Origin: a bacterium
Lineage (GTDB): Bacteria; UBA8248
Assembly (NCBI GenBank): GCA_965207065.1
Contig: OZ242260.1
Location: 2,810,017 to 2,874,016 of the forward strand
Reading direction: 5' to 3'
Length of the DNA stretch: 64,000 nucleotides
Shown: one piece after another, positions 30,436-49,517 of the stretch
Layout: each line of letters starts with the position of its first letter
Numbering within the stretch: the first letter of the stretch is position 1
Notes under the pieces: generated by a model
Seen by the model: the letters and a program-made list of their open reading frames with translations, nothing else
Told to the model about the DNA's origin: nothing
The model's database searches: none
Made by a program: the position numbers and the translations under genes

Positions 30436-30539
30436 CCGAGATAAAAAAAGCGGCGGTATGCCATAATTGCGCCTGGAAAAACCGGCGGAAATGAGGGGGG
30501 CGTGCGTCCCCGAACCGATGGCGCAAGAGGAGGCGCGAG

Positions 30540-30983: not shown

Positions 30984-30994
30984 TCAGATAAGAA

Positions 30995-31711
30995 TCAGAG
31001 CGTTACGCTCTCCCCCGGCTCCAGGACGATGACTTCCGTATCCAGGCCGCGTTTGCGCACCTCTTGGGTGAACGCCTCTGGCGTTCCCGTCAAGTGGGGC
31101 AGGCTCGAGTGGTGGATGGGCACGACGCGCTTCGCCTCCAAGAGCTCGCACGCCAGCGCCGCCTGGCGCGCGCCCATGGTGGCCCTGTCCCCGATGGGCA
31201 GGCAGCACAGATCGGGCGCATAGAGGTCGGCGATGATTCGCATGTCGCCGAAAACGGCGGTATCTCCCGCGTGGTAAAGGCGTTTGCCGTCCTCGAAGGT
31301 GAGAATCAGGCCGCAGGGCTCGCCCGTATACTTGAGTTCCGGGCCGTAGGCGCCCCCGTGAAAGGCGTGGGTGAGGGTGAGCTGGACGCCGCCGAAATCG
31401 ACCGTGCCGTCCTTTCCCATGGGCGTGGCGTGGGAGCCCAGGTCGTGTTCTGCGGCTATAGTGCGGATGAGGTCCATGTGTCCCGCCACCGGGCATGGGT
31501 TCGCCTCGAAAACGGGGATGACGTCGGCCGTATGGTCGAAATGGCCGTGGGTGAGGCAGATGAGGTCGGCTTTTTGCGGTGTCTTGAGTTCAGGCGGGCA
31601 TACGGGGTTCTTCTCGAGCCAGGGGTCGATGTAGATGCGCTTGCCCCCGTCCGTTTCAACCAGAAACGTCGATTGCCCATGAAATATCAGCGTTGCGCCC
31701 ATGTTTCGCAT
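30995..31711 (-). CDS. metal-dependent hydrolase, MBL fold (UPF0173-like)
   Basis: MBL motif CLTHGHFDHT and downstream His/Asp ligands. Confidence 0.8.
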   Translation of the reverse strand: MRNMGATLIFHGQSTFLVETDGGKRIYIDPWLEKNPVCPPELKTPQKADLICLTHGHFDHTADVIPVFEANPCPVAGHMDLIRTIAAEHDLGSHATPMGKDGTVDFGGVQLTLTHAFHGGAYGPELKYTGEPCGLILTFEDGKRLYHAGDTAVFGDMRIIADLYAPDLCCLPIGDRATMGARQAALACELLEAKRVVPIHHSSLPHLTGTPEAFTQEVRKRGLDTEVIVLEPGESVTL

Positions 31712-31743
31712 TACCTCCTAAGTGTTTGAATTACCAATGAAAT

Positions 31744-32634
31744 CTATAAGTATTCGCGGAACCAAGCCGTCGTTTCCGTGAGAGCCATCTCGAAGAGTTC
31801 CGGGTTGTTCACCTGGTAGACGTCGTTGTGGCGTCCCCTGGGAAGCATGACGATTTTCTTTGGCTCGCCGCAGGCCGCGTAGCAGGCGTGCGCTTCTGAG
31901 GGAGGAACCATGACGTCTTCTTCCCCGTAGATGAACAGGACGGGCCGGGGCGAGATTTTGCCGACCACCCATTCGGGGCGATAGCGAAAACAAGCCTCCA
32001 CGCTTTCGAGGTCGAGTTCGAGCACCTCCTCGGAGCCGTGTTCTTCCAGCGTCATCGGGGGTTTGGGGTTGTCCGGGTCGTCGCTGTAGATATCGTGGCG
32101 GATGATGGTTTCCCGCTCGTTGGTGGTGACGCGCTTGCGGGCGGCTTCCCGTACCCGGGACTGGAAGGCGAGCCATTCATAAGGCCTCCTCAATGTCTTC
32201 AGCCAACGCTCGCCGTCATGCACTCCCACGGCGGAGACGGTCGCCTTCACGCGCTCATCGAACGCCGCGGCCCAGATGGCGTGAGCACCCCCAAAACTCG
32301 TGCCGTACAGGCCGATTCGCTCGGGGTCCACGCCTTCTACGGTTTGCAGACAGGTGATTCCGTCGTAGGTGTCCTGGGCCTGTTCCAGCGGGCGGTGGCG
32401 TCCGCGAGCGCCCTCGCTCACACCGTAGCCGCGATAATCGGGCGCAAGGGTGAAAAACCCCGCTTTGCTCAAGTGGGTGGGCATGTCGATTGTGGCCAGG
32501 TTCTTTCGTCCGCTGTATCCTGTCACGCAGACGATTCCCGGTCGAGGCGGGTCACCGGGTTTCCAGTTGTCCGGGCGGTACAGATGCGCGGCGATTTTGA
32601 GGCCGTCGCTGAAATAAGTGATATCTTCGTGCAT
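31744..32634 (-). CDS. alpha/beta hydrolase fold protein
   Basis: Nucleophile elbow GTSFGG in an alpha/beta-hydrolase-length protein. Confidence 0.7.
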   Translation of the reverse strand: MHEDITYFSDGLKIAAHLYRPDNWKPGDPPRPGIVCVTGYSGRKNLATIDMPTHLSKAGFFTLAPDYRGYGVSEGARGRHRPLEQAQDTYDGITCLQTVEGVDPERIGLYGTSFGGAHAIWAAAFDERVKATVSAVGVHDGERWLKTLRRPYEWLAFQSRVREAARKRVTTNERETIIRHDIYSDDPDNPKPPMTLEEHGSEEVLELDLESVEACFRYRPEWVVGKISPRPVLFIYGEEDVMVPPSEAHACYAACGEPKKIVMLPRGRHNDVYQVNNPELFEMALTETTAWFREYL

Positions 32635-32844
32635 TTTAGTTTCCTTTTTAATGTATTAAATTACAATTGATTAGAGAATACCGGGTTTTTGACACACAGG
32701 GCTACTGCTGATAGGAGTAAGAAGGCATACAATACACGGTCTTTCTCGAATTTCCGAGAAACTGACGTTCCTGGAAAAGCCGCATGGGAAGTATGTCACG
32801 GAAAGTTTGGCGCCGCCGCTTGTAGAGGAGATACTGATTAAATC

Positions 32845-34170
32845 ATGTCTCGTCAAAAAATCTTCCTCATTCTTGCCGTTCTGGTTCTTGTAGTAGGCGT
32901 AGCGATCACGAAGTTGCTGATCGAGAATCGACCAGAACCCGAGACAGTGACTCCCACCGCACCACGCAGATTCGTCAGGACCATGCTCTTGAAAAAACAG
33001 GACAAAACCTTCTGGGTCAATGGGTTCGGAACCGTTCGGCCCAAAACGGAGCTTTCCATCGTGCCTGAAGTATCCGGGAAAGTGGTCATGCGATCATCTG
33101 GGTTCAGGACCGGCGGCTTCATCAAGAAAGGGGATGTGCTTTTCCGAATCGACCCTGCGGATTACAAACTCGCCATCGAGCGGCGAAAAGCGGAAATCGC
33201 GCAACTCAGAGCCGATATCGCTCGATTGAGGCAGGAGGAGAAGAATCACCAGGCCGATCTGGACATCACCGAACGCCATATGGAGTTAGTTGCTCAGGAA
33301 ATGGAACGCAACGAAAGATTGCGAAGACAAGGCGTTATTTCTTCTGGTCAATACGATCAGTCCCAACAGAATTTCCTCAGGCAGGAGAGAACGGTTCAGT
33401 CTATCAGGAACATGCTGGCGCTGCTGCCCGTTCAGTTGAGACAGAAACGCGCGGCGTTGAGAGCGAACCAATCGGAACTCAAAAGAGCGACTCTGCAATT
33501 GTCTCGGACCAAAATCGTGGCTCCTTTTGATGCTCGGGTGCGAGAGACGGGTTTGGAAATAGGAGATTTCGCCAGTGCGGGTAAATCCGTGGGCAAAATT
33601 TATGATGTTTCAGCACTGGAAGTCCCTGTTTCACTGCCGGTTGAGGATGCGCGCTGGGCGTTTCGCCGTATTCGGGAAGTATCCTTTCCCCGTAGCCAAG
33701 AAGAGGTAAAGCCTTTTTTCCCCGCTGCCAGGGTATCCTGGAGTCAGTTCGGCAAAAAGTTTGAATGGACTGGGCGGGTGTCTCTCGTGGATTCCGGGCT
33801 GGATGAGTCCACGCGCGCGCTCACACTCGTAGTTGAAATTTCTGAACCCATGAAAAATTGGATATCTGGAGAGCACCCTCCCCTTTTTGTGGGGATGTTC
33901 GTTGAAGTGAAAATCGAAGGCATCACGATGCCAGGCGTGTTCGTCATTCCGCGCACCGCATTGCGTGAACGGGATCACGTTTATTTGTTGGACGAAGGGA
34001 AATTAAGGATTCAAAAAGTGGAAGTCATTCGAAAAGCTCAGGATGGCGTCGTGATCAGAAATGGAGTGAGTGAAAACGCCCGTATCATTCTTTCCGCTGT
34101 CCCCGAGCCCGTCTCCGGCATGATACTCAACGAACAAAACGGGATTCCTGGCGGGGCATCCACGCAATGA
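32845..34170 (+). CDS. efflux RND transporter periplasmic adaptor subunit (HlyD/MFP family)
   Basis: N-terminal TM anchor, coiled-coil, lipoyl-like and beta-barrel regions; overlaps start of downstream RND pump. Confidence 0.85.
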   Translation: MSRQKIFLILAVLVLVVGVAITKLLIENRPEPETVTPTAPRRFVRTMLLKKQDKTFWVNGFGTVRPKTELSIVPEVSGKVVMRSSGFRTGGFIKKGDVLFRIDPADYKLAIERRKAEIAQLRADIARLRQEEKNHQADLDITERHMELVAQEMERNERLRRQGVISSGQYDQSQQNFLRQERTVQSIRNMLALLPVQLRQKRAALRANQSELKRATLQLSRTKIVAPFDARVRETGLEIGDFASAGKSVGKIYDVSALEVPVSLPVEDARWAFRRIREVSFPRSQEEVKPFFPAARVSWSQFGKKFEWTGRVSLVDSGLDESTRALTLVVEISEPMKNWISGEHPPLFVGMFVEVKIEGITMPGVFVIPRTALRERDHVYLLDEGKLRIQKVEVIRKAQDGVVIRNGVSENARIILSAVPEPVSGMILNEQNGIPGGASTQ

Positions 34171-37100
34171 AGCAAATTCTGGCTTGGTCTGCACGCCATA
34201 CCGTTTTCGCCAACCTTTTGATGGTGATAATGATAATCATCGGCGTTTTCGCCGTTTTTCAAATTCGCAGTGAATTGATCCCTCAATTCGCCCTAGATCG
34301 GGTTAGCGTCAAAGTAACGTGGGAGGGCGCGAGTCCCATGGAGGTGGAAGAGGGAGTTTGCATCAAAATCGAAGAAGCCTTGACCGGTGTCGAGGGGGTA
34401 AAAAAAATCACTTCGGTTGCCTATGAAGGGCGATGTGAAATTGCAGCGGAACTGCATGCCTGGATCAAGAGTTCCCGGGATTTGATGGAAGATATCAGAA
34501 GCGAAATCGACCGCATCAAAACATTGCCCGAGGATATAGAAAGGCCCATCGTTTCGGAAGTGAAGCGGATACTTCAGGTAATTGACATCTCATTGTTTGG
34601 CAATGTTTCGGAAGAAGTCCTGAAACGAAAAGCCACGGAGATCAAAGATGAATTGCTGGAAATGCCCAACATTTCCAAAGTAGTTTTGAGCGGCTTGAGA
34701 GATTGGGAAATATCAATCGAAGTTTCAGAGGAGATGTTGCGCCGCTTTGGGCTCACTTTTGAGCGAGTTGGAAATATCATTCGCAAAAACGTGCTTGAAC
34801 TCTCGGGTGGGGATATCCGTTCTGCGGAGCGAAGAATCAGAATCAGGACATTGGGGAAGCGTTACACGGGTCTGGAATTCGAGCGGCTTGAAATACTCAC
34901 CCGACAAGACGGTACCATCTTGAGACTCGGTGATATTGCTCGAGTGGTCGACGCTTTTGAAGAAAGCGATAAAACGGGTCGGTTCGATGGGAAACCGGCT
35001 GCGCTCATCACGGTGTATAGAACCGATGAGGAAGATGCGCTTTCGATTTCTAAAGCAGCAGTTGGATACGTTAAGAAAAAGCGCGAGGAATTACCTGAAG
35101 GGTTGGATTTGGTCCATTGGGCGGATACCTCGCGTTTGATACAGGACCGGCTCGATCTTTTAATGAGAAACGGGCGCGTCGGACTCGTTTTGGTTTTCTT
35201 CTCCATGTGGTTGTTTTTAAACATTCGTCTTTCATTTTGGGTGGCCATGGGAATTCCCGTCTCCCTGTTGACGGCGCTCGGTTTTTTGAATTTCACCGGC
35301 GGTACTCTCAATATGCTCTCGATGTTCGCCTTCATCATGGTTTTAGGGATACTGGTGGACGACGCCATTGTAGTGGCTGAAAATATCTATTCCCATATGG
35401 AAAGAGGGAAGAATCGCGTTCAGGCCGCTATCGACGGCTGTTATGAAGTTGTCCTGCCGGTTATCGCCACTGTCGTGACATCTATTGTGGCTTTCGCTCC
35501 CTTGCTTATGGTGGAAGGAACTGTCGGGAAATTCATGGCGGTGCTTCCGGCGGCTATCATCGCCGCGTTAATCGCTTCTCTTATCGAGTCATTATTTATT
35601 CTGCCGGCTCATTTGGGTCATTGGGTGAGGTCGCCCAGGTCGGGTGGAATATCAGCGCGCGTGAGGAAAGCCATCGATAGTGCAATCAACTGGCTTATCT
35701 ATCGGTTTTATGCGCCGATTCTGAAATTTTGTCTCAACGCCAGATATCTGGTCATCTCTCTGGCTTTGGTGGTTTTTATGGTGACAGTAGGATTGGCTGT
35801 GGGTGGGCATGTGAGATTTTTGTTTTTCCCTAAGCTCGATTCCGATTGGGTGGAAGCCAGAATTCTGTTCCCTCCGGGAACCCCGATTCGGCAAACGCGA
35901 AACGCGGCGCAAAGGATTGAGCAGGCAGCCGTTGCCCTTGATGAGGTTTTTCGTTCGAAAACGGGTGAGCCGATCGTGAAACATATATTCACGACGCTGG
36001 GCGAGCAATTTGGCCAAAACCGTGAGCGTGTCGCGGGGGGCAGCCATATGGCGCATTTGATTGTGGAGTTGCTGCCCTCGGAGGCCAGAGGAATTAGTGG
36101 GGAGGAAATTACAAACCGCTGGCGCGAAAATACAGGAAAAATTCCGGATGTATTGAGCCTAACTTTCGGTTCCGGGAGAGCCGGCCCGCCTGGCGGTAAA
36201 CCTATCGATGTGCAGTTCTATGGTGATGACATCGAGACATTGAGAAGTGTATCCACGGAATTCAAGCGGGAGTTAACAAAATATCCTGGTATATATGACA
36301 TTCAAGATGACTTCAGGCCCGGAAAGCTTGAATTCAGAACATCATTGAAGCCACAGGCGCGGGTGCTTGGCGTGAGCCTCGATGACTTGGGGCGTCAGTT
36401 GCGCGCGCGCTTTTTCGGGCTGCAGGTCCTGCGTCTACAACGCGGCCGGGATGACGTGAAGGTCAAACTTCGCTATCCGCCCGAGGAGAGGCGCTCTATC
36501 GAAGACATCAGGAAAATGAGAGTCAGGGCGTCCTCAGGGGCCGAAATCCCTTTCCATGAGGTGGCGGAAGTCGAGATGGTTCAAGGGCTTGATGAAATCA
36601 GGCGTGTGTCCAGAGCAAGGGCGATCAACGTAACAGCTGAAATCAACCAGGGCCGGGCCAATCCCACCGAGGTTCTGAACGACTTGAAGGCGAATTTCTT
36701 CCCAAAGTTCCTGAACCGCCAAAACGGAGTAGGGGTTAGATTCGAAGGTCAGGCAAAAGAGACGCAGGAGTCATTCAACAGTCTGTTTCGCGCCTTTGCG
36801 CTAGCGATTGCCGTCATTTTTGCGATTTTGGCCACTCTGTTCAGAAGCTATTTCCAGCCCATAGTCGTCATGAGCGCGATTCCGTTTGGGATTGTTGGCG
36901 CCATTTGGGGGCATATCATCCTAGGGTACGATATCTCGATATTGAGTATGTTTGGCATCTTGGCGCTTACCGGGGTTGTGGTGAATGACTCTTTGGTGCT
37001 TTTGGATTTCGCAAATCGGAGTATCAAAGACGGAATGCCGATAGAAGATGCGCTACAGCAGGCCGGTGTCGCAAGATGGAGAGCGATTGTTCTAACGACA

Positions 37101-37355
37101 ATGACGACCGCCGCAGGATTGGGGCCGATGTTGTTCGAGAAAAGTTTTCAGGCGCAATTCTTGATTCCCATGGCGATTAGTCTGTGTTTCGGGCTGCTTT
37201 TCGCCACGGTGATAACGCTTGTTCTGGTTCCTGTAATCTCTTTAATTGGAAACGACTTCGGCCGGTTTTGGTGGCGTATATGGACGGGCAAATGGCTTAC
37301 GAGAGAAGAAGTGGATGTACATTCTCCGCAGAAAGAAGGAGAAATCCACGCCTGA
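34167..37355 (+). CDS. efflux RND transporter permease (AcrB/AcrD/AcrF family)
   Basis: 1062 aa, two 6-TM bundles with large periplasmic loops; AcrB-type motifs (GILVDDAIVVAENI, GVVVNDSLVLLDF). Confidence 0.9.
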   Translation: MKQILAWSARHTVFANLLMVIMIIIGVFAVFQIRSELIPQFALDRVSVKVTWEGASPMEVEEGVCIKIEEALTGVEGVKKITSVAYEGRCEIAAELHAWIKSSRDLMEDIRSEIDRIKTLPEDIERPIVSEVKRILQVIDISLFGNVSEEVLKRKATEIKDELLEMPNISKVVLSGLRDWEISIEVSEEMLRRFGLTFERVGNIIRKNVLELSGGDIRSAERRIRIRTLGKRYTGLEFERLEILTRQDGTILRLGDIARVVDAFEESDKTGRFDGKPAALITVYRTDEEDALSISKAAVGYVKKKREELPEGLDLVHWADTSRLIQDRLDLLMRNGRVGLVLVFFSMWLFLNIRLSFWVAMGIPVSLLTALGFLNFTGGTLNMLSMFAFIMVLGILVDDAIVVAENIYSHMERGKNRVQAAIDGCYEVVLPVIATVVTSIVAFAPLLMVEGTVGKFMAVLPAAIIAALIASLIESLFILPAHLGHWVRSPRSGGISARVRKAIDSAINWLIYRFYAPILKFCLNARYLVISLALVVFMVTVGLAVGGHVRFLFFPKLDSDWVEARILFPPGTPIRQTRNAAQRIEQAAVALDEVFRSKTGEPIVKHIFTTLGEQFGQNRERVAGGSHMAHLIVELLPSEARGISGEEITNRWRENTGKIPDVLSLTFGSGRAGPPGGKPIDVQFYGDDIETLRSVSTEFKRELTKYPGIYDIQDDFRPGKLEFRTSLKPQARVLGVSLDDLGRQLRARFFGLQVLRLQRGRDDVKVKLRYPPEERRSIEDIRKMRVRASSGAEIPFHEVAEVEMVQGLDEIRRVSRARAINVTAEINQGRANPTEVLNDLKANFFPKFLNRQNGVGVRFEGQAKETQESFNSLFRAFALAIAVIFAILATLFRSYFQPIVVMSAIPFGIVGAIWGHIILGYDISILSMFGILALTGVVVNDSLVLLDFANRSIKDGMPIEDALQQAGVARWRAIVLTTMTTAAGLGPMLFEKSFQAQFLIPMAISLCFGLLFATVITLVLVPVISLIGNDFGRFWWRIWTGKWLTREEVDVHSPQKEGEIHA

Positions 37356-37530
37356 TATTATGCTTCATAGTTTTATCGAATGGAACTACTTGCGGGAATG
37401 TATTTATTCAATTCCCCCAAAAGTTTGCTTTCATTATTGATTGTAATCTCGAATACGAATGAGTTTAGGAGAACAAGATTTTATGTCCTCAGAATTTGAT
37501 GTGCGCTACGGTGAAGAGGTAGGAGACAAG

Positions 37531-38583
37531 ATGGAAGCGGTCGTGATGACCGCACCTGAAAATTTGGAAATACAGTCCGTTCCCGTTCCGGAACCGGGCA
37601 TCGGGGAAGTGCTCGTGAAAGTGGAATGCACCACGATTTGTGGTACAGACATAGAGATCATCAAAGGCGGTCACCTCCCCAACTGGCCGCCCCGGCTTCC
37701 GGCCATCCTGGGGCATGAATGGTCGGGCAGAATTGTGGCTATGGGCCCGATGACTGAGGGTTTCGGTCTCGGTATGGGTGATGCCGTGGCTGGGACGAGC
37801 CATGCTGGATGCGGTGCCTGTCGCATGTGCCTCATAGGCCGTTATAATCTCTGTTATAATTACGGGAATACAGTCACTGGTCATAGGCAGTACGGGCATA
37901 TCACGCAAGGCTCGTATGCGGAGTATGTCGTCAACAACATACGTGCGTTGCACAAAATGCCCGAGGGAATGTCGCTTGAGTATGGGTCGGCCGTGGACCC
38001 TGCTGCTTGCGGGCTCTGGACGGCGAAGCGTGCTGGCATCAATCCTGGCGATACGGTCGTGATATTGGGTTCCGGACCCATCGGTGTTTTTGCATATGAA
38101 TCCGTCAAGGCGATGGGCGCAGGACGCATAATCGTTGTGGGCGGTGGCAGGAGGCTCGAGATTCTAGAGGAACAAGGCGCTGAAGTTGTCAGTTACCGAG
38201 ATGGCGGTGTGCCGGAACGGATTGATGAGATGACCCGCGGGAAAAAAGCCAACGTCGTGCTGGAGACGGCTGGAACCACGGATAGCTTCAAATGGAGTGT
38301 GGATTGCGGCGGCAAAGGCGCGCGAGTCGCCATTACCGGCATACCGGACAACATTCCTGATATGGCATGGAAGCGCGTCGTGCTCGAGGAAATGGATATT
38401 TTTGGTGTTCGGGCGAATCCCAACTGTGGAGATGAAGTATTATCACTCATTCAAGCCGGCAGGATGAATGTGGACCCATACATTACTCATCGGTTCCCCC
38501 TCAGAGAATACCAAGAAGCGCACGATACGTTTGTGGCTCGAAAAGATGGCGCTTTGTTGGTGAACCTGACTCCTGGAGCATAA
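37531..38583 (+). CDS. zinc-dependent alcohol dehydrogenase (MDR family)
   Basis: Zn-ligand region CTTICGTDIEI, structural-Zn Cys cluster (CGACRMCLIGRYNLC), Rossmann GSGPIG; start set to MEAVVM. Confidence 0.85.
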   Translation: MEAVVMTAPENLEIQSVPVPEPGIGEVLVKVECTTICGTDIEIIKGGHLPNWPPRLPAILGHEWSGRIVAMGPMTEGFGLGMGDAVAGTSHAGCGACRMCLIGRYNLCYNYGNTVTGHRQYGHITQGSYAEYVVNNIRALHKMPEGMSLEYGSAVDPAACGLWTAKRAGINPGDTVVILGSGPIGVFAYESVKAMGAGRIIVVGGGRRLEILEEQGAEVVSYRDGGVPERIDEMTRGKKANVVLETAGTTDSFKWSVDCGGKGARVAITGIPDNIPDMAWKRVVLEEMDIFGVRANPNCGDEVLSLIQAGRMNVDPYITHRFPLREYQEAHDTFVARKDGALLVNLTPGA

Positions 38584-38588
38584 CGACA

Positions 38589-38990
38589 ATGTCTCAAGGC
38601 GAGATGAAATATGGCGCGAAGATGATTGCGGAGGCGAAGCTCGAAGCCGTTCCGAATCCATCAATGCAGCGCGATTACGTTGTAGATTTCACCATTCCCG
38701 AATTCACTTGTCTTTGCCCGCTCAGTAATTTTCCCGACTTCGCCACAATTCGCATCAAATACGTTCCTGGTGAAATGATAGTGGAGTTGAAATCCTTAAA
38801 ACTCTACATCAATAATTACAGGGACCGGGAAATATTTCATGAACAGGTGGTCAGCACCATCCTTGACGACTTGGTTGAGGTTTGCGCGCCGAAATGGGTG
38901 TGGATTGAAGGGGATTTTAACGTTAGAGGAAATATAAAAACAAAAATTCGAGCCACGCATGGTGTGAGACCACCAGATATTCCGGAATAG
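38589..38990 (+). CDS. queF: NADPH-dependent 7-cyano-7-deazaguanine reductase
   Basis: QueF motif E(S/L)K(S/A)hK(L/Y)(Y/F/W) present as ELKSLKLY; catalytic Cys context EFTCLCPLSNFPDFA. Confidence 0.85.
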   Translation: MSQGEMKYGAKMIAEAKLEAVPNPSMQRDYVVDFTIPEFTCLCPLSNFPDFATIRIKYVPGEMIVELKSLKLYINNYRDREIFHEQVVSTILDDLVEVCAPKWVWIEGDFNVRGNIKTKIRATHGVRPPDIPE

Positions 38991-39089
38991 ACGAATCGCT
39001 GATCAACTTGTAACGTTGCTCGGTGCAAAACAACTAACTTATAGTACTTAACATTAAACCCGATGAATTAAGCCATATTTCTCAATGAG

Positions 39090-41345
39090 GTGGAAATGAC
39101 AGACTATAAAGTCGCGGGCATGGGCCTTACACGAATCGATGCACCTGACAAAGTAGCTGGCAGTGCAAAATATGCGGCTGACGTTCCATCGAGCCGTTCA
39201 CTCATCGGTCTAGTCTTGGGTAGTCCGCATCCGTATGCGAAAGTACTGAGCGTAGATGCGAGTGAGGCGCGTAAGATACCTGGCGTCCGGGCAGTCGTGA
39301 CGCGAGATGACGCCCCCCGCATTCGATTCGGCGCCAACATCAAAGATCAGAGTTGGTTTGCGCAGGATGGCTTTGTTCGATATGGCGGAGAACCTGTGGC
39401 TGCTGTGGCCGCCGAAGATATGGATGCCGCTCAAGCGGCAATTGAATCGATTCAGGTGGACTATGAAGTTTTAGAGCCAGTGGTAAACGGCTTGGACAGC
39501 CGGGCAGGCGAGGGTCTTGCCGTCCACGAAGATTGGCAAGATTTGGGACTTGGCCCGAATGCAGACAAAAACATTATCGCCCGATTTGAAAAAGAAATTG
39601 GAAATGTCGACGCCGGATACAAAGAGGCGGATCGCATTTTTGAGCACACATTTTCTACACCATTCGTACATGCCGGCTATATTGAGCCTCACGCTTGCGT
39701 TGCCGAGGCAGGTGCAGACGGAAAAGTCACAATCTGGACAACCACGCAGGATGCATGGTCCATCCGGGCGGACGTGGCTGAGGCGCTTGGCCTCCCGGCA
39801 ACTCATGTTCGAGTCATTCCTACTGAAATCGGCGGTGGGTTTGGCGCTAAGCTAAAGAGTACTTATGAGCACCTAGCCGCTCTTTTGGCTTTGAAAACTG
39901 ACCAGTCTGTGCGCATGGAGATGACGCGCGAGGAAGATCATATCGGGGTGAATCCGAGACACCCGCATTTCATTACGATCCGCACAGCGGTGAAGAATGA
40001 TGGTACATTTGTCGCTCGGGAGCTTGATGTCACGATGGATCATGGCGCCTATGGCCGAGGCGCACCGTTTCAATGCAGTAGCAAGATGCTGATGGGTTCA
40101 TGCTCGTATCGTATCCCCAACGTTAGGATTCGTGCTTGTACGGTATATACCAATGGCCCCGTTTGTGGTCCCGTGCGTGCTCCCAGCGGTCCCCAGTACC
40201 ACTTTGCCACTGAAGTGCAGATGGACATCATCGCGCGCGAGATGGGGATTGACCCACTCGAGATAAGGCGAATTAATTCCCTTCGGCCTGGAGATGAGAC
40301 GCTGGCTGGGAAGGAGCCGGCTCCGTCCATGCGTAGTGTGCTTGACTCAACTGCCGTGGAAGGCATGTGGGGAAAGAAAATTGAGGCTAACGGAGAGCTC
40401 GAGGGAGATGGCTGGAAGCTCGGCCGCGGCATAGCTTGCGGATATTGGCCGGGTCCTGGGGAGGCGTCTAGTTGCACGGTTCGCCTGAATCAAGACGGCA
40501 CCGTACAAGTGGTAGCGGGAACGGTGAACCTTACGGGTATGAGCACTTCCATATGCCAACTTGCCGCAGAGGAATTGGGCGTTAGTTTGGATGAAGTGCG
40601 GTACACGAACGGAGATACAGATTCGGTTCCCGAATCATCGGCGGCGTCAGGCAGTAAGGCGACGCGCGCGGTTGGAATGGCAACTTTGAGTGCCGCCCGT
40701 GATTTGCGGAACAAAATCTTGAATGTGGCGAGTATAAAACTCGAAGCCGCTGCGGATGATCTGGTTTTGGAAGATGGACAAGTCAAAGTGGCTTCAGCGC
40801 CCGACCGAGCTATGTCTCTTGCACAGGTGGCCAAGGCGGCGCCTGAAATTCAGGGATTTTTAATCGGACAAGGTGAAAGCGCAAAGCCTCCCCCATGTCC
40901 GATACATACCGGACAGGTGGCGGATGTAGCCGTGAATCCGGAGCTTGGTGAGGTCAGGGTTTTGCGCCTTACATGCGTGCAGGACGTGGGATTTGCCATA
41001 AACCCATTGTCCGTGGTGGGACAAATTGAAGGCGCCATGCTCCAGGGACTCGGATTGGCCCTCATGGAAGAGCAACCCAGGCGCCCGGATGGTAATTTGC
41101 ATGGCGATACCTTCCATGAATATCTGATACCTACCAGCATGGATATGCCTGAATTGAATGCCGTTTTGTATGATAACCCGGCCGAGGGTACGCCCTATGG
41201 GATGCGAGGCGTGGGTGAACCGCCCATTGTGGCGACTGCGGCGGCGATTGTGAATGCCATTCAAGACGCTGTTGGTACACCAGTTTTCTCATTACCTGTT
41301 GGCCCGCATCATATTCGAGAGGCTCTGGCTACGAACAGCGTATAA
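39090..41345 (+). CDS. xanthine dehydrogenase/aldehyde oxidase family molybdopterin-binding subunit
   Basis: 751 aa; a/b hammerhead plus MoCo-binding domains (PHACVAEAG, GGGFGAK, GVGEPPIVATAAAI); no adjacent 2Fe-2S or FAD subunit genes. Confidence 0.85.
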   Translation: MEMTDYKVAGMGLTRIDAPDKVAGSAKYAADVPSSRSLIGLVLGSPHPYAKVLSVDASEARKIPGVRAVVTRDDAPRIRFGANIKDQSWFAQDGFVRYGGEPVAAVAAEDMDAAQAAIESIQVDYEVLEPVVNGLDSRAGEGLAVHEDWQDLGLGPNADKNIIARFEKEIGNVDAGYKEADRIFEHTFSTPFVHAGYIEPHACVAEAGADGKVTIWTTTQDAWSIRADVAEALGLPATHVRVIPTEIGGGFGAKLKSTYEHLAALLALKTDQSVRMEMTREEDHIGVNPRHPHFITIRTAVKNDGTFVARELDVTMDHGAYGRGAPFQCSSKMLMGSCSYRIPNVRIRACTVYTNGPVCGPVRAPSGPQYHFATEVQMDIIAREMGIDPLEIRRINSLRPGDETLAGKEPAPSMRSVLDSTAVEGMWGKKIEANGELEGDGWKLGRGIACGYWPGPGEASSCTVRLNQDGTVQVVAGTVNLTGMSTSICQLAAEELGVSLDEVRYTNGDTDSVPESSAASGSKATRAVGMATLSAARDLRNKILNVASIKLEAAADDLVLEDGQVKVASAPDRAMSLAQVAKAAPEIQGFLIGQGESAKPPPCPIHTGQVADVAVNPELGEVRVLRLTCVQDVGFAINPLSVVGQIEGAMLQGLGLALMEEQPRRPDGNLHGDTFHEYLIPTSMDMPELNAVLYDNPAEGTPYGMRGVGEPPIVATAAAIVNAIQDAVGTPVFSLPVGPHHIREALATNSV

Positions 41346-41376
41346 ATCACACCCGATACTTATCAAGGAGAATCCA

Positions 41377-42042
41377 ATGCCTGTAGACGAAGGAACAAGT
41401 TTGCCGGATAGTTTGGGCGTGACCGATGAGATGATGGCATGTCCTTTACCAAGGTTGCCTTTCGTTGATCCTGACAATGTTCCCGACGAACTCAAGGAAG
41501 AACTCGCTCCGCTCTACGATTGGTCGAAACGGATGTGGGGCACTGTCCCACGCTTTTTACAGCTTTTGGGAAATTCACCCCCTACTGTGGAAGGATGGAT
41601 GTTGCTCGACCAGAAGCTCCGTACGAATCGATTGAAAACGGAGTCCGATTACATTCGACTCATGGAACTGGTCATCGTCAAAACGGCCATTTTGACAGAG
41701 TGCAACAACTGAATCGGGCACAATGTGGAGCTCGGTCGAGCTCTGGGTCTTACGCAGGATCAAATCAACATGTTGGAAGGCGATGATTGGAATGAAAGTG
41801 ATTTGTTCGATGACAAGGAGAAAGCCGTTATCCGTTGGGCGGATGAAGTATCGAAGTTCAGAGCGAAGAACAATGACTTCGCATTCAATGAGATGAAAAA
41901 ATATTTCTCCAATCGGCAGATCGTGGAACTCACTTTTATTTGTGGGATGTGGCATCTTTCGGGAAGACTGGCCGAGGCGCTCCACCTGGTTGTGGAACCA
42001 CCGGGAGGGCGCATCGAATTTCAGGCAGAAGACATGGCGTAA
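41377..42042 (+). CDS. carboxymuconolactone decarboxylase/AhpD-like protein with in-frame UGA (probable selenocysteine) at 41710-41712
   Basis: Track ORFs 41254..41712 and 41725..42042 are in the same frame, separated only by TGA; joined sequence ELVIVKTAILTECNN-U-IGHNVELGRALGLT matches the CMD catalytic Cx2Cx3H motif with U replacing the 2nd Cys; aaggag RBS before ATG 41377. Confidence 0.65.
41726..41745 (+). promoter_or_regulatory. SECIS-like hairpin 14 nt downstream of the in-frame UGA
   Basis: ug-GAGCUC-GGUC-GAGCUC-ug: 6-bp GC-rich stem extendable by two G-U pairs, GGUC tetraloop. Confidence 0.4.
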
Positions 42043-42315
42043 ACACAAGCTTCATCGTCAAATACATTTGTTGAGCGATCCTTGCGTTGTGTCGTTTTGG
42101 CTTGATATACGCGTGCGCATACAAATCATCTCCAACATTTGCTCATCTGAAATTCATCTTTCCGGCTTCCATTTTCGTTTTTTCGACTGACTATTTCATC
42201 CGCCCATGATATGAAACATGTTTTGAACAATGCATTTTTATCGGTTGAAAAATAAGGATATATACATAAAAAAAGAATTGCTTTTTTTGAAGATTTTTGT
42301 ATACTCACGCGCTTT

Positions 42316-42546
42316 GTGATGTCGCCTGTGAATAATCCGGGCAAATTCGAATTGAGCCGCCCAATGAATGAGGAAGAAATGCTCGAGTTCAATGAAAGTG
42401 TTGCTGTCTTGGATCAAGAGTTTTTCGCTGAGTCTGGCGATGTTTTGCCAACGGATGTGGACAATGATGTGTCTGATGACGGTGCAAGTAACGATTTCTC
42501 CTTCTTAAGTGACGGCGAAGGAGGCAATGCTCCTGCTGCTTATTAG
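42316..42546 (+). CDS. small acidic hypothetical protein
   Basis: 76-aa Asp/Glu-rich ORF in an AT-rich segment, followed by a strong terminator; no recognizable domain. Confidence 0.35.
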   Translation: MMSPVNNPGKFELSRPMNEEEMLEFNESVAVLDQEFFAESGDVLPTDVDNDVSDDGASNDFSFLSDGEGGNAPAAY

Positions 42547-42570
42547 CATCCAACAGGAGAAAATGATTCA

Positions 42571-42605
42571 GCGCCCGGTTGAGATTTCAGCCGGGCGTTT
42601 TTTGT
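42571..42605 (+). terminator. Rho-independent terminator
   Basis: Stem CGCCCGG/CCGGGCG with 12-nt loop followed by TTTTTT. Confidence 0.7.
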
Positions 42606-42643
42606 CCTGAAATATCTGTAATATGGAATTTACTTCATAACTA

Positions 42644-43504
42644 TTGGAAGAAATTGTGATGGCGACAGACGAACTGACGATTCATCATGAAGACTTGCGT
42701 GGCCGCATTCTCTCAACGGATTCGATGACCTATTTTGACGAAAGGGTTGAAGAACGGGACGTTCTCATTGGAGGCTCTTACGCCGCACGCATGACGATGG
42801 CGTGGGCAATGCGCCTGGGTGCGAGGGCAATCGTTGCCCATGCGGCAGGAGTAGGAAAAGATGACGCGGGTATAAGCGGTCTCCGGTTGGCCCAGGAATA
42901 TCATGTGCCTGCATTGGCATGTGAGACAATGTCCGCAAGACTCGCCGTTGGAGTATCCGTTTATGAAGGCGAAGTCGGCCATGCGAATCAAGTGGCCCAA
43001 AGTCTCGGTGTTGAAATCGGTCAATCCATTGCTGAAGCTTCGAAAATTTTGCTCGATGCCGATGTGGGCCGGGAAGTGATTGTGGAGGAAAGCCTGGATG
43101 ATAGAATTTATGAGCTAGAGCATTTGCCTGATGGTAACATACGCGCTTCATGGGGAATTCCCGTCCTGCGTTCTATCCAGGAACCAAGGCCCCAAGATGT
43201 TTTTATCCAAGCCTCGCATTGCGGACTTACTCTCGTACCGCATGTCATGAAGCTTAATTTAAAGGGTGTTATTGCCAATGATGCAGGACGGGGGAAAGAT
43301 GACTCCGGCATCGCATCTTTCCCCTACCTGGCGCGGGAGGGGATTGCGGTGGCGGCGGTCGGCGCCATGAGTGCGCGAATTGGTGATGTGATGAGCACCT
43401 GGCAGGAAGGCATTATTTCATGCATGAACGAAGTGGCGGAGAAGCGTGGGGTGCGAGAAGGCATGATGACGCGAGAGGCGGCTATCGCAATGCTCAATGC
43501 GTAG
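42644..43504 (+). CDS. hypothetical protein with internal duplication
   Basis: 286 aa; two homologous halves each containing A.G.GKDD(A/S)GI(S/A) (AAGVGKDDAGISGL / DAGRGKDDSGIASF); no family recognised. Confidence 0.5.
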   Translation: MEEIVMATDELTIHHEDLRGRILSTDSMTYFDERVEERDVLIGGSYAARMTMAWAMRLGARAIVAHAAGVGKDDAGISGLRLAQEYHVPALACETMSARLAVGVSVYEGEVGHANQVAQSLGVEIGQSIAEASKILLDADVGREVIVEESLDDRIYELEHLPDGNIRASWGIPVLRSIQEPRPQDVFIQASHCGLTLVPHVMKLNLKGVIANDAGRGKDDSGIASFPYLAREGIAVAAVGAMSARIGDVMSTWQEGIISCMNEVAEKRGVREGMMTREAAIAMLNA

Positions 43505-43522
43505 GATTTACCAGAAATTATC

Positions 43523-43598
43523 TGGTGGAGGTGAGGGGATTCGAACCCCTGACCTCGTGGGTGCGATCCACGCGCTCTCCCATCTGAGCTACACCCCC
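43523..43598 (-). tRNA. tRNA-Ala (anticodon CGC)
   Basis: Minus-strand cloverleaf GGGGGTG-TA-GCTC-AGATGGG-AGAGC-G-CGTGG-ATCGCAC-CCACG-AGGTC-AGGGG-TTCGAAT-CCCCT-CACCTCC-A-CCA; G3:U70 Ala identity pair present. Confidence 0.9.
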
Positions 43599-43654
43599 AC
43601 AAAAGGAACTTGAAGGTAGGCGAAGGAGCTACGGGTGTCAAGTGAAATAGGGAG

Positions 43655-43944
43655 AGCCGATGAAGAACTCCCCCTAGGAGACTTCACCGGCTCTCGACCT
43701 GCCACAGAGTCCGCCCGTTTCCCCCGCAGCAGGGAGTTGCTTTTGACTAAAGTGGGAGCCAAGGACTCAACCCCTGAGGTATATTATCCTTGGCTCCCGA
43801 TCCTGCTGCAGAGTCCGCCCGTTTCCCCCGCAGCAAGAAAATTCACTGAAATTCCATTTTGGTGAGAGTCGGGGGACAACCCTCCAAGGATTTTCCCCCG
43901 ACTCTCGTCCCGTCGCAGAGTCCGCCCGTTTCCCCCACGACGGG
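43655..43944. repeat. tandem array of alternating hairpins: three copies of a conserved 21-nt loop CAGAGTCCGCCCGTTTCCCCC with variable closing stems, interleaved with three long perfect hairpins
   Basis: Cores at 43705-43725, 43809-43829, 43916-43936; stems cctgcca/cagcagg (imperfect), ctgctg/cagca, cccgtcg/cgacggg; intervening hairpins with 8-, 12- and 13-bp stems. Confidence 0.6.
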
Positions 43945-43953
43945 TAAGCTATA

Positions 43954-46900
43954 TCAAGAACATCCACTCGTCGCGCCACAAGTCATACATTTCAGGCACG
44001 TCCCGTTTCGCACTAAGGTGAACAAACCACAATCGCTGCAAGCTTCCCCCTCATACCCTTTCGCGCGGGCTTCTTCGATGCGTGAATCAATTGCGGAGCT
44101 TGCTTCCGTTATGGGTGTCATCGAAGTTTGGGTGGATTCTGTCTCATAATTCAGACTTATCCGGTCGCTGCGCGGTGCGCTTGCATCCGGTCCCGGGAAT
44201 ATGGTTTGAATCTCTTCTTCTTCCTCGGTATCGAATTCCGGAATCTCTTCCTGGGGGCGCCCGATGGTGTCGCTCCTCAAGTCCTCCGACACGACTTGCG
44301 CCAGGTCGTGGCGACCGAGATATGAAACCGCCAGTTCACGGAAGATGTAATCGATGATGGATGTGCTCATCTTGATGTGCGGGTTGCCCGAGACCATACC
44401 CCCCGGCTCGAATCGTGTGAATACGAAGGCATCCACGAATTCATCCAATGGGACGCCGTGTTGGAGCCCCAGCGAAATTGCGATGGCGAAACAATTCATG
44501 AGGCTTCTGAAGGCAGCGCCTTCTTTGTGCATATCTATGAAAATTTCGCCGATGGAGCCGTCCTCGTACTCACCGGTTCTAAGATATACCTTGTGACCGC
44601 CAATGACGGCTTTTTGTGTGTATCCACCGCGGCGGGTAGGCAACTTGCGTCTTCTGGACTGGTAAATGATCCGGCGCACAATCTGCTGGGCTACATGCAC
44701 GGGGGCACTTTGGGTAGCTGGTTCTTCTTCGCCGATATCACTGAAGAGTTCTGCTTCGCTTTGTGCGGAAAGTGGTTGGCTTAGTTTCGAGCCATCGCGG
44801 TAAATCGCTATGGCTTTGGTCATCCGCTGCCACGATTCGTTGTAGATGTCTAAAATATCTTGAATCGTTGATTCCGCGGGCATGTTGATGGTTTTGCTGA
44901 TGGCGCCAGATATGAAAGGCTGCGCCGCCGCCATCATTCGAACATGGGCCATGGGGCTGATGAAACGCTTGCCTTCTCGTCCGCATTTGCTCGCGCAATC
45001 AAAAACGGCTAGATGCTCTTCTTTTAGGTGGGGCGCCCCCTCAAGCGTCATTTTCCCGCAAACGAAATCATTCGCTTCGCTGATTTGTTCTGGAGTGAAA
45101 CCAATGGCTTCGAGCAGATTCAGGTTCCAGTCGGCTATTTGCGCTTCGCTGAGCCCTAATTGCTCAATGCAGAAGTCATCACCGAGGGAATGTTTGTTGA
45201 AGGCGAACTGGATTTCAAACGCCCCTTCGAGAGCAGCTTCCACTTTTTCCAGAGCCTTGCTCGTAAACCCTTTCTCGTGCAAAGACTCTGGATTGATATG
45301 AGGAGCATTCGTGAGGGTCCCCCGCCCTCGGCAGTAGGCGACGATTTCGCGGATCTCTTCATCGTCATAGCCTAGATGCCGCAAGGCAGCGGGAACGGAT
45401 TGGTTGATGATCTTGAAATAACCGCCTCCGGCCAGTTTTTTGAATTTCACCAAAGCAAAATCCGGCTCGATTCCCGTTGTGTCACAATCCATCACCAAAC
45501 CAATTGTGCCTGTCGGCGCGATGACAGTGGCTTGTGCGTTCCGGTAGCCGTTTCGATAGCCGATGGCCAAAGCATCATCCCACGCCTCACGCGCCGCTTG
45601 GAGAAGATAATGGGGGCAGATTTCCGCAGCGATTCCTGCTGGTGCCTTCGAGAGCATTTCGTATTCTGCCTCCGGCACAGAATAAGCTGCGCGGCGGTGG
45701 TTTCTCAGAACCCGCAACATGTGCTCTTGGTTGTCCTGATACCTTGAGAAAGCGCCCATTTCCCCTGCCATCTCGGCGCTGGTGGCATACGAGCAGCCGG
45801 TCATGATGGAGGTGAGAGCGCCGCACCATGCTTCCGCTTCAAGTGAGTCGTAAGGGATGCCAAGAACCATTAACAAGGTGCCCAGATTGGCGTACCCAAG
45901 TCCTAAAGTTCGATACTCGAATGAGCGTTTGGCTATTTCCGGACTGGGGAATTGCGCCATCAGTACTGAAATTTCGAGGACGACTGTCCATAGGCGAATA
46001 ACATGACGATAGTCTTCTATCTGAAAGTGGTTTTTTTCAGTATCCAAGAATTTTATGAGATTCATCGACGCTAGATTGCATGCGGTATCATCCAAGAACA
46101 TGTATTCTGAGCAAGGATTAGAGCCGTTGATGCGACCATCGGCGGTGCACGTGTGCCAGTCGTTGATGGTTGTGTCAAATTGAAGGCCAGGGTCTGCGCA
46201 ACACCACGCTGCATATCCAATCTGATTCCAAAGTTCTTTCGAACTGACGGAGTCCGCGATTTCGCCGTCAGTGCGCCGTATCAGGTTCCAATCCGAGTTT
46301 TTCTCGGTAGCTTCCATAAAATCATCTGAAACGCGGATGGAATTGTTCGAGTTTTGACCGGAAACCGAGATGTAGGCCTCGCCTTCCCAATTTGTATCGA
46401 GCTCTTCGAACTCGATTTCGGTGATGCCTTGACGTGCAAGTTGGAGAGTCCGATGGATATAATTATCCGGAACGCCGGCGAGTCTTGCGGCCCGAATTGC
46501 TTTGGTGAGTGATGGGTTTTTATCCGGCTGGTACAAGTTGCCATTCAAGCTCAGGTTCTTTCCTTCCAGGCAAGCCCCGAGAATGGCGTTCATGTGCCGG
46601 TTGCACATCTTGCTGCCCGAAACCAGGGCGGCCACTTTCTGTTCTTCGTGCACCTTCCAGTTGATGAATTCCTCGATGTCGGGGTGGTCGATGTCGAGCG
46701 TGACCATTTTCGCCGCGCGCCGAGTGGTGCCGCCCGACTTGATCGCGCCCGCGGCGCGATCCCCAATCTTGAGGAAACTCATGAGGCCGGAGCTTCTTCC
46801 ACCTCCTGAGAGAGATTCCCCCTCCGCTCTCAAATTCGAGAAATTCGTGCCGGTGCCCGAGCCGTATTTGAAAATGCGCGCCTCGCGCGTCCATAAATTC

Positions 46901-47550
46901 ATGATCCCGCCCTCGTTGACGAGATCATCTTTCACCGATTGGATGAAGCACGCATGCGGTTGAGGACGCTCATAGGCGTTGGTGGAGCGGAGTATTTCCC
47001 CGCTTTCGGGATCGCAATAAAAATGTCCCTGGGCGGGGCGCGTGATGCCGTAGGCCCAGTGCAGGCCCGTATTGAACCACTGTGGCGAGTTGGGGGCCGC
47101 CATCTGGCTCGCTAGTATGTATAAAAGCTCCTCATAGAACGCTTTGGCGTCTTTTTCCGCGTGAAAATAACCGTGTTTCCAGCCCCAATAGGTCCAGCAT
47201 CCCGCCAGGCGATGGAAAACGTCCCGGGCGTCGCGCTCGCTTCCGAATCGCTCATCCTCGGGCAGGGACTCAAGTTTTTCCGTGTCCGGCTCCGAGCGCT
47301 GCAGCCATTCGGGCACTCCCTCTTCGGAAACTTTGTTTAAATGTGTGGGGACGCCGGCTTTTCGGAAGTATTTTTGCGCTAGAATGTCGACGGCCACCTG
47401 AGACCAGCTCTCAGGCGCCATGATGTCCTTCGCTTCGAAGACGACCGAGCCGTCCGGGTTGGTGATGCGCGAGGTGCGCGGCGTGAAACCGACCTCGCCG
47501 TACGCGTCATCTCCGGCCCGGGTGAATCGCCTCGTAAACTCCACGCCCAT
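43954..47550 (-). CDS. nrdJ: adenosylcobalamin-dependent ribonucleotide reductase (class II)
   Basis: 1198 aa; class II RNR layout with Cys-rich C-terminal tail ([22 protein letters not shown]); ggagga RBS before ATG. Confidence 0.9.
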
Positions 47551-47614
47551 TCTCCTCCGCTAGGAACGCCCCGCTATGCCGGGGTCATATTTAGTATGGC
47601 GAAATCAAGCGGCA

Positions 47615-48430: not shown

Positions 48431-48796
48431 TCAGTCCTGCTCCAGGAGGACGGCCAGCTTCTCCAGCGCTTCGCCCACCACGCGCGGCGGAGCCTGCGAC
48501 GCGAGGCGCGCCTTTCGCGCCCGCCAGTCGAGGCTCTTCACCTGATCGGCGAGCACCACGCCCGTAACGGGGCCATCGGCGGGGAGCGCCACCTCGAAGG
48601 GATAGCCCTTGGCTCTCGAAGTGACGGGACAGAGGAGCGCCAGACTGCTTTTCTCGTTATAGCTTCGCGGGCTGACGACCAGCGCGGGGCGGCGGCCCGC
48701 CTGCTCATGCCCCGCCTGGGGGGTGAAGGAGAGCCAGACGACGTCGCCCCTGCCCGGAACGTAGTCCGCGTCCGAAACCACCGGTCTCGCTACCAC
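48431..48796 (-). CDS. mazF: type II toxin, MazF/PemK family endoribonuclease
   Basis: PemK/MazF pattern (GDVVWLSFTPQAGHEQAGRRPALVVS, LCPVTS, VVLADQVKSLDWRARKA). Confidence 0.85.
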   Translation of the reverse strand: MVARPVVSDADYVPGRGDVVWLSFTPQAGHEQAGRRPALVVSPRSYNEKSSLALLCPVTSRAKGYPFEVALPADGPVTGVVLADQVKSLDWRARKARLASQAPPRVVGEALEKLAVLLEQD

Positions 48797-49029
48797 GCCT
48801 CAATGCCCTGCGCCGGGCCTGCGTCCTGTTCGGCGTGGAGGTTGTCCGCGTTCATCTCAGCGAGCATGTCGGCCAGCCGGTAGCCTCTCTTGCGCATCAC
48901 CACCCTGTCGCCGCGCGCGCTCATCTCGATGGCCGAACCCTCCCGGACGCCCCATTGCTCGGCGATGGGCTTCGGGATGCGGACGGCCAGGCTGTCGCCC
49001 CACTTTGCGATATGCGATTTCGCGCCCAT
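48790..49029 (-). CDS. mazE: type II antitoxin, MazE/AbrB-SpoVT family
   Basis: 79 aa with swapped-hairpin motif (AKWGDSLAVRIPKPIAEQWGVREGSAIEM); overlaps mazF start. Confidence 0.8.
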   Translation of the reverse strand: MGAKSHIAKWGDSLAVRIPKPIAEQWGVREGSAIEMSARGDRVVMRKRGYRLADMLAEMNADNLHAEQDAGPAQGIEAW

Positions 49030-49235
49030 GCGGTTATCCTCCTCTCAAATATTTATATCTATAATATATATCTATTTGAAGGTGGTGTCGAAGGGAAGGG
49101 ATTTCTTAATACTCACACCAGGCATGTTTGCAATTAATCCCCCCTTGATAAGCATCGACGACCGATATAATAGGTTTACGTTTATGTTCGGTATTCCGGC
49201 GCATGCCGGAATGAAGGTGAAGAACCGCGTCCGCC

Positions 49236-49307
49236 GTAGGGACAGGCCCCTGTGCCTGTCCGAAGCCTCTCTTCCGGCAAGGGACAACCACGGGGGGTTG
49301 TCCCTAC
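49236..49307. repeat. REP-like palindromes
   Basis: 49236-49263 identical to 7942-7968; second palindrome gggacaaccacggggggttgtccctac at 49281-49307. Confidence 0.5.
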
Positions 49308-49517
49308 TGCGAAAACCAAAACTCCTCTTTTCTTGGTCGAGTGTGACTAAAAGGAACCGCATATATGTAGCCTGTGGTCGGAAGGCGAAAAGGGAGGGTC
49401 GCATTATGTGTGTGACAACCCCGAGGAGGGGTTGCCACCTACATACGGTGTGGATATTTCAATCCCGGTCTCGATAATCAACTCTGGCGTCGGTCGACCC
49501 CATCGGCGCGCGCTGAA

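Follow-up and report, generated by a model that had tools for sequence, protein, structure and literature searches.

A molybdenum hydroxylase large subunit encoded without adjacent partner subunits, next to an AhpD-fold selenoprotein gene, in a bacterium of the UBA8248 lineage

We analyzed a stretch of 64,000 nucleotides (64 kb; hereafter the window) from contig OZ242260.1 of a bacterium of the UBA8248 lineage. An open reading frame (ORF) in it, at 39090..41345 (+ strand), encodes a large subunit of the xanthine-oxidase/CoxL family that binds the molybdenum (Mo) cofactor, and the gene directly downstream encodes an AhpD-like protein containing selenocysteine (Sec). The Mo subunit is best read as a member of a distinct, new, and uncharacterized subfamily of xanthine-oxidase/CoxL (COG1529) molybdenum hydroxylases. 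Its gene has no accompanying genes for the iron-sulfur (2Fe-2S) and flavin adenine dinucleotide (FAD) subunits, and this partnerless state is a heritable trait of the clade rather than an accident of the window locus. What is new is this uncharacterized subfamily with its heritable partnerless organization; the enzyme family and the neighboring kind of selenoprotein are known.

Results

Absence of partner subunit genes in the window and in the clade

The initial annotation described a 751-aa Mo subunit without adjacent 2Fe-2S or FAD subunit genes. We searched all 64 kb for such partners with six-frame scans for cysteine motifs, tblastn with verified CoxS and CoxM sequences, and Pfam scans of the 49 window ORFs. 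No Fer2 or Fer2_2 cysteine motif was present in the six frames of the whole window, and CoxS and CoxM had no tblastn match in it; the control loci matched strongly. Fer2, Fer2_2, FAD_binding_5, CO_deh_flav_C, XdhC, AIRS/SelD, and Mo-cofactor-biosynthesis domains were likewise absent from the 49 ORFs by Pfam. Three independent checks without partner genes confirm the earlier observation.

A homologue search with the Mo subunit returned 35 clusters (P0001-P0035) at 57-95% identity, after which identity dropped sharply to 43-45%. All clusters of the clade came from metagenome-assembled genomes (MAGs) that were labeled Nitrospinota or Tectomicrobia or had no label, and the isolate names of these MAGs suggest a sponge-symbiont setting. 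Gene neighborhoods were taken for 36 clade loci and sorted into five contexts. About 30 loci, reaching down to 61% Mo-subunit identity (L003), have an RND pump, with or without an alcohol dehydrogenase (ADH), followed by QueF, the Mo subunit, and the Sec-containing AhpD-like protein. A variant of this order in L020 and L021 runs from the pump to QueF, the Mo subunit, and YnfA, with the ADH and AhpD genes missing. In L020 the Mo gene is followed by an ORF of 110 aa, which was considered as an AhpD remnant but proved to be YnfA/UPF0060. The Mo gene stands alone between shikimate dehydrogenase and sigma-70 genes, both on the opposite strand, in L004 and L032; it lies between an amidohydrolase gene and an HpcH aldolase gene in L031; and in L119, a Nitrospinaceae MAG, it follows a glyoxalase gene and precedes a chemotaxis operon (CheA). 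No CoxS or CoxM homologue was located within 10 kb of any clade Mo gene (L001-L026, L031, L032, L039-L042, and L119).

A [2Fe-2S] subunit gene was adjacent in 7 of 7 control loci (L027-L030, L033, L034, and L045). Two members of the 43%-identity outgroup were looked at, and their gene orders are FAD-FeS-Mo (L033) and Mo-FAD-FeS (L034). The small subunit gene is also adjacent in alphaproteobacterial relatives (L027-L030, 28-30% identity) and in a metagenome contig (L045). Matches to the FAD subunit, which is optional in the family, were obtained in L027-L030, L033, and L034, with none in the window or the clade loci. Canonical relatives with adjacent partner genes are 43% identical at the nearest and 28-37% identical when more distant. 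Because the clade has no adjacent partner genes in five contexts while its relatives carry them, the absence is heritable in the clade. When the CoxS of L045 was used as a query, the best 120 protein matches were mostly of Chloroflexi or Bacillota type, a list that speaks neither for nor against partners elsewhere in the clade genomes. Nothing relevant emerged from the literature on coxL genes that lack partners or on Mo subunits that stand alone.

Identity, active site, and selection of the Mo subunit

The Mo-subunit gene has a GTG start and encodes 751 aa. Matches to Ald_Xan_dh_C (E 3e-23), MoCoBD_1 (2e-71), and MoCoBD_2 (2e-64) were all well above the Pfam gathering scores, so that the three-domain architecture of the xanthine-oxidase/CoxL large subunit is complete. 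The protein aligned end to end with 42 solved family members, the best being the alpha subunit of 4-hydroxybenzoyl-CoA reductase (1RM6_A, 302 bits). Four catalytic features were assessed, namely the Gln that contacts Mo=O (TTQ), the GGGFGxK loop, the Arg of the xRxxGxPQ loop, and the general-base Glu of GxGEPP. The corresponding Q220 (TTTQ), GGGFGAK at 248-254, R363, and E710 (GVGEPP) were kept in 33 of 33 clade members and in the outgroup. These motifs were retained over 57-100% identity, and the gene was full length in 33 cluster representatives. The ratio of nonsynonymous to synonymous substitution rates (dN/dS) was 0.036 against L006, 0.039 against L001, and 0.027 against L017 (orthologues 88-96% identical). 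The Mo gene is intact, strongly constrained, and under purifying selection. Median length in the clade was 752 aa vs 745 aa in the outgroup, with indels of merely 1-8 residues; no fused FeS or cytochrome domain was present in the clade subunits by this comparison.

The closest known system is HcrA, the alpha subunit of 4-hydroxybenzoyl-CoA reductase, which was the best match among both solved structures and NCBIfam models (TIGR03194, 462 bits), in each case end to end. Both proteins have the three-domain Mo subunit, TTTQ, GGGFG, and the position of the catalytic Glu. However, HcrA works with HcrC (FeS) and HcrB (FAD/4Fe-4S), neither of which is encoded in the window, and the window protein scored less than half of the TIGR03194 cut-off (995 bits). 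Identity with HcrA was ruled out by motifs and by this score, and no partner genes are present in the window. CoxL proteins (COG1529; CO dehydrogenase forms I and II and their relatives) belong to the same family and are of the same size, and the lineage of the window includes Nitrospinota-labeled MAGs. In place of the form I AYRCSFR, however, the window subunit has VRAPSGPQ, and it has no adjacent coxS or coxM, unlike L027-L030, L033, and L034. Form I CoxL was rejected since the VAYRCSFR loop with its Cu-binding Cys is missing (the aligned segment is CGPVRAPSGPQ) and TIGR02416 scored 253 vs 991. Xanthine dehydrogenase proper was ruled out by motifs and model cut-offs.

Several residues set the clade apart. 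Cys462, Cys603 (within C-P-I-H/Y), His284, and His676 are invariant in the clade and are not found in canonical relatives. Cys203, Cys629, His318, and His740 are nearly invariant, and His261 was also listed among the conserved residues; canonical relatives lack these as well. An intrinsic Fe-S site built from the four clade-specific cysteines is not claimed; two of the four are missing in P0024-P0026.

The AhpD-fold selenoprotein

The gene downstream of the Mo subunit (41377..42042, + strand) has 221 codons in one frame with a single in-frame TGA, the Sec codon UGA at 41710..41712 (+) within E-C-N-N-U-I-G-H. A hairpin resembling a selenocysteine insertion sequence (SECIS) is located at 41727..41744 (+), begins 15-16 nt past the UGA, and has a GAGCUC stem, a GGUC loop, and a GAGCUC stem in the centroid fold. 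With Cys put at the TGA, the translated ORF matched Pfam CMD (23.8 vs 23.0) and the NCBIfam 'YciW-related (seleno)protein'.

We compared 33 distinct Sec-type sequences (58-100% protein identity, genomic GC 0.37-0.71) and 15 Cys-type homologues. The Sec column was invariably Cys or Sec, with TGA in 33 of 33 Sec-type sequences and TGC or TGT in the 15 Cys-type homologues. In the 33 sequences, the five codons GAG CTC GGT CGA GCT after the UGA were nearly frozen at synonymous positions while flanking four-fold sites varied freely; the same five codons varied in the Cys-encoding homologues, so that the freezing was limited to UGA-bearing genes. Mean minor-allele frequency was 0.021 in the hairpin vs 0.16-0.22 in the flanks. 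The GGUC loop was present in 33 of 33 sequences, and all six pairs were present in 31 of 33, a single G-U pair occurring in nine of the 31. No SECIS model in Rfam matched. A structure model of a homologue (P0123, 54% identical; predicted local distance difference test, pLDDT, 87.4) had 37 significant matches, all of them AhpD/CMD structures. The ORF at 41377-42042 is a genuine selenoprotein gene, and the homologue model assigns its product the predicted AhpD fold.

AhpD-like CxxU selenoproteins are an established family that is abundant in marine metagenomes (PMC2398784; PMC13188914). The window protein resembles the 'AhpD-like 1' group (COG2128, GOS selenoproteome; TIGR01926-type) in its CMD/AhpD fold, its CxxU with a downstream His, its SECIS, and its marine or metagenomic distribution. 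It differs in that its scores against the existing NCBIfam models do not reach the trusted cut-offs (46 vs 310; 33 vs 82). Many Cys-type relatives carry Ser in place of the first Cys, and the partner thiol is therefore not universal. Public gene calls (L001-L003) split the selenoprotein into ORFs of 111 aa and 105 or 108 aa without annotation, a systematic mis-annotation of the family. A second, distant (27%) AhpD-like gene in L119 (820-1473, 9 kb upstream of the Mo gene) is likewise called as two ORFs, and it may encode Sec as well. The fold matches of the P0123 model included the Bmp8 debrominase (6OHI), a CMD-fold, thiol-dependent reductive dehalogenase; dehalogenation as an alternative chemistry of the CxxU protein in a sponge-associated bacterium would be a purely speculative analogy.

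Linkage of the Mo-subunit and selenoprotein genes

The two genes are on the same strand with a gap of 31 nt, which contains no terminator comparable to the one at 42570-42599, and they are probably co-transcribed. The initial annotation proposed that their co-location may be functional, and this stood in part. The linkage was conserved in relatives, with adjacency at the approximately 30 loci described above, and it was retained despite turnover of other neighbors: a TenA gene is inserted in L002, and the genes after AhpD differ in L001, L002, and L003. The pairing is not obligate in either direction, however. Four clade contexts have no AhpD gene beside the Mo gene (L020/L021, L004/L032, L031, and L119), and most Sec-type AhpD-like homologues (58-69% identical) adjoin unrelated genes with no pterin enzyme nearby. 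Their neighbors, which were sorted with a filter on GC content at third codon positions (GC3) and by manual selection (owing to antisense ORFs in high-GC contigs and Sec splits), encode a luciferase-like monooxygenase, CN-hydrolase, glyoxalase, MDR dehydrogenase, fumarylacetoacetate (FAA) hydrolase, and creatinase. Furthermore, the genomes in which the Mo and AhpD genes adjoin also share synteny over a 15-kb block that starts at the RND pump and extends to a class II ribonucleotide reductase, which makes this single adjacency weak evidence of function.

Pterin enzymes recurred near some AhpD-like homologues. Cys-type homologues with S-I-N-C and no first Cys (51-60% identical) adjoin genes for tungsten- or molybdenum-dependent (W/Mo) aldehyde:ferredoxin oxidoreductases (AFOR family) in two lineages, one represented by L035 (7942-10660), L036, L037, and L057, and the other by L038 (3331-5979), L063, and L064. 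In L045, a canonical CoxS-L-M set is followed 6 kb downstream by a Sec-type copy. By raw count, approximately 3-5 of about 15 AhpD-like lineages had a pterin enzyme nearby, and pterin enzymes may be enriched near these genes. The literature held nothing relevant on a link between CMD proteins and AFOR.

Genomic surroundings

The flanks agreed with the initial annotation by Pfam and NCBIfam, with queF and an MDR dehydrogenase gene upstream of the Mo gene and the Sec-containing AhpD-like gene directly downstream. The queF gene (38589..38990, +) encodes a preQ1 synthase of the unimodular type (TIGR03139, 148.8 bits; cut-off 86.9). It is the most persistent neighbor of the Mo gene, its adjacency being retained even in L020 and L021. 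There were no grounds for a non-housekeeping nitrile-reductase role, as the protein exceeds the preQ1-synthase equivalog cut-off. The gene for the MDR zinc-dependent dehydrogenase (37459..38583, +; ADH_N, ADH_zinc_N) ends 5 nt upstream of queF, and its product reached no NCBIfam equivalog cut-off. The conserved block is headed by an RND efflux pair of a membrane-fusion protein and an AcrB-type pump (32845..37355, +; HlyD_3, ACR_tran), which is syntenic in L001-L003 and L005-L026.

Downstream of the selenoprotein gene are an acidic ORF of 76 aa (42316-42546) and, after it, a hairpin with a 13-bp stem and a T-run (42570..42599, +), which of the sites downstream of the block most resembles an intrinsic terminator. 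An ORF of 286 aa follows (42644-43504) that has no significant Pfam or NCBIfam family and contains an internal two-fold repeat, AG[V/R]GKDD[A/S]GI ... SAR. Beyond the closest relatives, neither this ORF nor the 76-aa ORF is conserved. Beyond the 286-aa ORF are tRNA-Ala and then the class II ribonucleotide reductase gene on the other strand.

Across the block bounded by the RND pump and the ribonucleotide reductase (32800-47600), GC content dips to approximately 0.50-0.53 (GC3 0.5-0.6), compared to approximately 0.61 (GC3 0.75-0.85) in the flanks. The same dip was present in the close relatives L005, L010, and L014 and not in L001, L002, or L020. This pattern suggests that a relative with lower GC content donated the block to the sub-lineage of the window, as a replacement or as a new acquisition. 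RibD_C, E1alpha, and E1beta genes directly precede the RND pump in L001-L003 and are approximately 11 kb from it in the window, where the region 18520-32634 contains an insert of a Phd/ParE pair, adenine deaminase, SDR, sugar ABC transporter, glyoxalase, MBL hydrolase, and alpha/beta hydrolase genes. By the reductase gene, the region 48434-50911 encodes a PemK/MazF toxin, a DUF5131 (phage Gp37/Gp68-like) protein, and a retropepsin-like aspartyl protease; its GC content is uneven and it looks mobile. Two tandem paralogues of approximately 280 aa with near-identical N-terminal halves (59818-60654 and 60971-61819, both −) had a weak TPR match alone.

Discussion

The explanation that we consider most likely, giving it about an even chance of being right, is a hydroxylase whose 2Fe-2S subunit, with or without an FAD subunit, is encoded elsewhere, accompanied by a selenoprotein that is a generic thiol/selenol helper. 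The Mo cofactor site would hydroxylate an aldehyde or an N-heterocycle, and the two electrons would exit through 2Fe-2S (possibly FAD) subunits made from another locus, which a paralogous enzyme may also use. The CxxU protein would then be a generic peroxide or disulfide reductase that is co-expressed with the Mo subunit and is not a selenium donor to Mo. In sponge symbionts, the CoxL family has undergone great expansion, to as many as approximately 29 paralogues per Tectomicrobia genome; coxSMLG sets occur in 64% of symbiont genomes, and more than half of the CoxL-type genes in symbionts are without known substrate (PMC8941161). By analogy with this expansion and with the commonness of coxSMLG sets, partners at another locus are plausible.

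Four observations weigh against this explanation. The search reached over the 64-kb window and up to 10 kb around the clade Mo genes, and it identified no partner subunit for the clade. The partnerless state persists over approximately 40% divergence and five contexts, which is unusual in a family whose subunit genes are almost always adjacent. The clade-invariant Cys462, Cys603, His284, and His676 are unexplained. Finally, TIGR03194 was the best NCBIfam equivalog, followed by XdhA types, and since every equivalog score was less than half of its cut-off, no substrate can be assigned to the Mo subunit.

Adjacency of the two genes could reflect inherited synteny only, with co-transcribed neighbors of unrelated function and the AhpD-like protein acting as a general antioxidant; we regard this as possible though doubtful. 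The 15-kb block is conserved in the same genomes, so one adjacency adds little weight; the CxxU family is abundant in marine metagenomes (PMC2398784), and the neighbors of AhpD-like genes elsewhere are heterogeneous, all of which would be expected if the neighbors were unrelated. However, the terminator-free 31-nt spacing was retained while other neighbors were gained or lost (TenA in L002), and at least 3 independent lineages have pterin-dependent oxidoreductases close to homologues. The latter observation bears as well on a scenario that we judge unlikely, in which the Mo enzyme stands alone, dispenses with the FeS/FAD wire, and has its Mo centre cycled directly by a two-electron partner. 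Where the CxxU selenoprotein is adjacent, it would be that partner; in the other contexts, the role would fall to other thiol proteins or to a second substrate. The enzyme would possibly run in the reductive direction like 4-hydroxybenzoyl-CoA reductase, its closest characterized relative. The clade-wide partnerless trait in five contexts beside canonical sister groups is in keeping with a stand-alone enzyme, as are a reductase as the closest characterized homologue, the clade-specific invariant Cys462, Cys603, and His284/His676, the tight coupling to the Sec-type AhpD gene at approximately 30 loci, the Cys-type AhpD-like genes beside AFOR in two lineages, and the Sec-type copy linked to CoxS-L-M in L045. 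Such an enzyme is harder to reconcile with the four clade contexts in which the AhpD gene is not beside the Mo gene, with the majority of Sec-type AhpD-like genes that have no pterin enzyme nearby, and with the loss of two of the four clade cysteines in P0024-P0026. Moreover, to our knowledge, none of the characterized members of the xanthine oxidase family is without 2Fe-2S clusters, and we know of no precedent within the family for an enzyme with the Mo cofactor only. Outside it, BisC (biotin sulfoxide reductase) and YedY/MsrP are Mo-cofactor-only enzymes that receive electrons from small redox proteins. They provide a functional analogy, being pterin enzymes without a built-in FeS wire, but they belong to the dimethyl sulfoxide (DMSO) reductase and sulfite oxidase families. 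A bolder form, which we hold to be distinctly unlikely, is that this would be the first xanthine-oxidase-family enzyme free of an FeS wire, its Mo centre cycled in two-electron steps, or serviced (for example, by re-sulfuration of the cofactor), by a dedicated selenol/thiol CxxU AhpD-fold protein that would use Cys462, Cys603, and the His residues as a docking or relay site. If the CxxU protein does have this role, the AhpD-like genes beside W/Mo AFOR enzymes would reflect a general helper role for pterin enzymes.

Two further explanations concern the Mo subunit itself. The initial annotation suggested a tie to the selenium-dependent Mo hydroxylases, a class in which selenium is a labile, non-Sec ligand and the markers are YqeB (TIGR03309), YqeC (TIGR03172), YgfJ, and SelD (PMC2276186). 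Selenium would here be delivered to the Mo centre with the neighboring selenoprotein as part of the system. The co-location with a selenium-containing protein is in its favor, the subunit belongs to the same superfamily as the Eubacterium barkeri nicotinate and xanthine dehydrogenases and purine hydroxylase, and the organism uses selenium and would have to own SelD to make Sec. In contrast, the subunit scored far below the cut-offs of the selenium-related models (TIGR03311, 302 vs 830; TIGR03313, 279 vs 1102), and YqeB/XdhC-like, YqeC, YgfJ (NTP-transferase), and SelD (AIRS) genes were absent among the 49 window ORFs and from the gene tables of the related clade loci. In the window, selenium is carried as Sec by a separate small protein and not as the labile non-Sec ligand of the established class (PMC2276186), and CxxU AhpD-fold proteins are redox proteins. 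The proposed tie did not hold up; sequence comparison does not support the Mo subunit as a selenium-dependent Mo hydroxylase in the established sense, and we consider that explanation very improbable. The missing partner genes could also mark a decaying, non-functional relic, a large-subunit gene left behind after its operon partners were lost. This is refuted by the selection and conservation data (dN/dS 0.03-0.04, full length in 33 representatives, and catalytic motifs conserved over 57-100% identity), and we give it next to no chance.

In uncultured bacteria such as sponge symbionts, few enzyme families are as expanded and as poorly understood as the CoxL-type genes, which are routinely read as 'CO dehydrogenase'. 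A coherent CoxL subfamily that is always encoded alone is now defined. A second product of the analysis is a cleanly validated selenoprotein gene that annotation pipelines currently split and whose SECIS signature can be read from its synonymous sites. If the partners of the Mo subunit do come from another locus, then subunits would be shareable among paralogous Mo enzymes, which alters how such genes are counted and annotated. If no partners exist, the family could no longer be said to require 2Fe-2S clusters as a rule.

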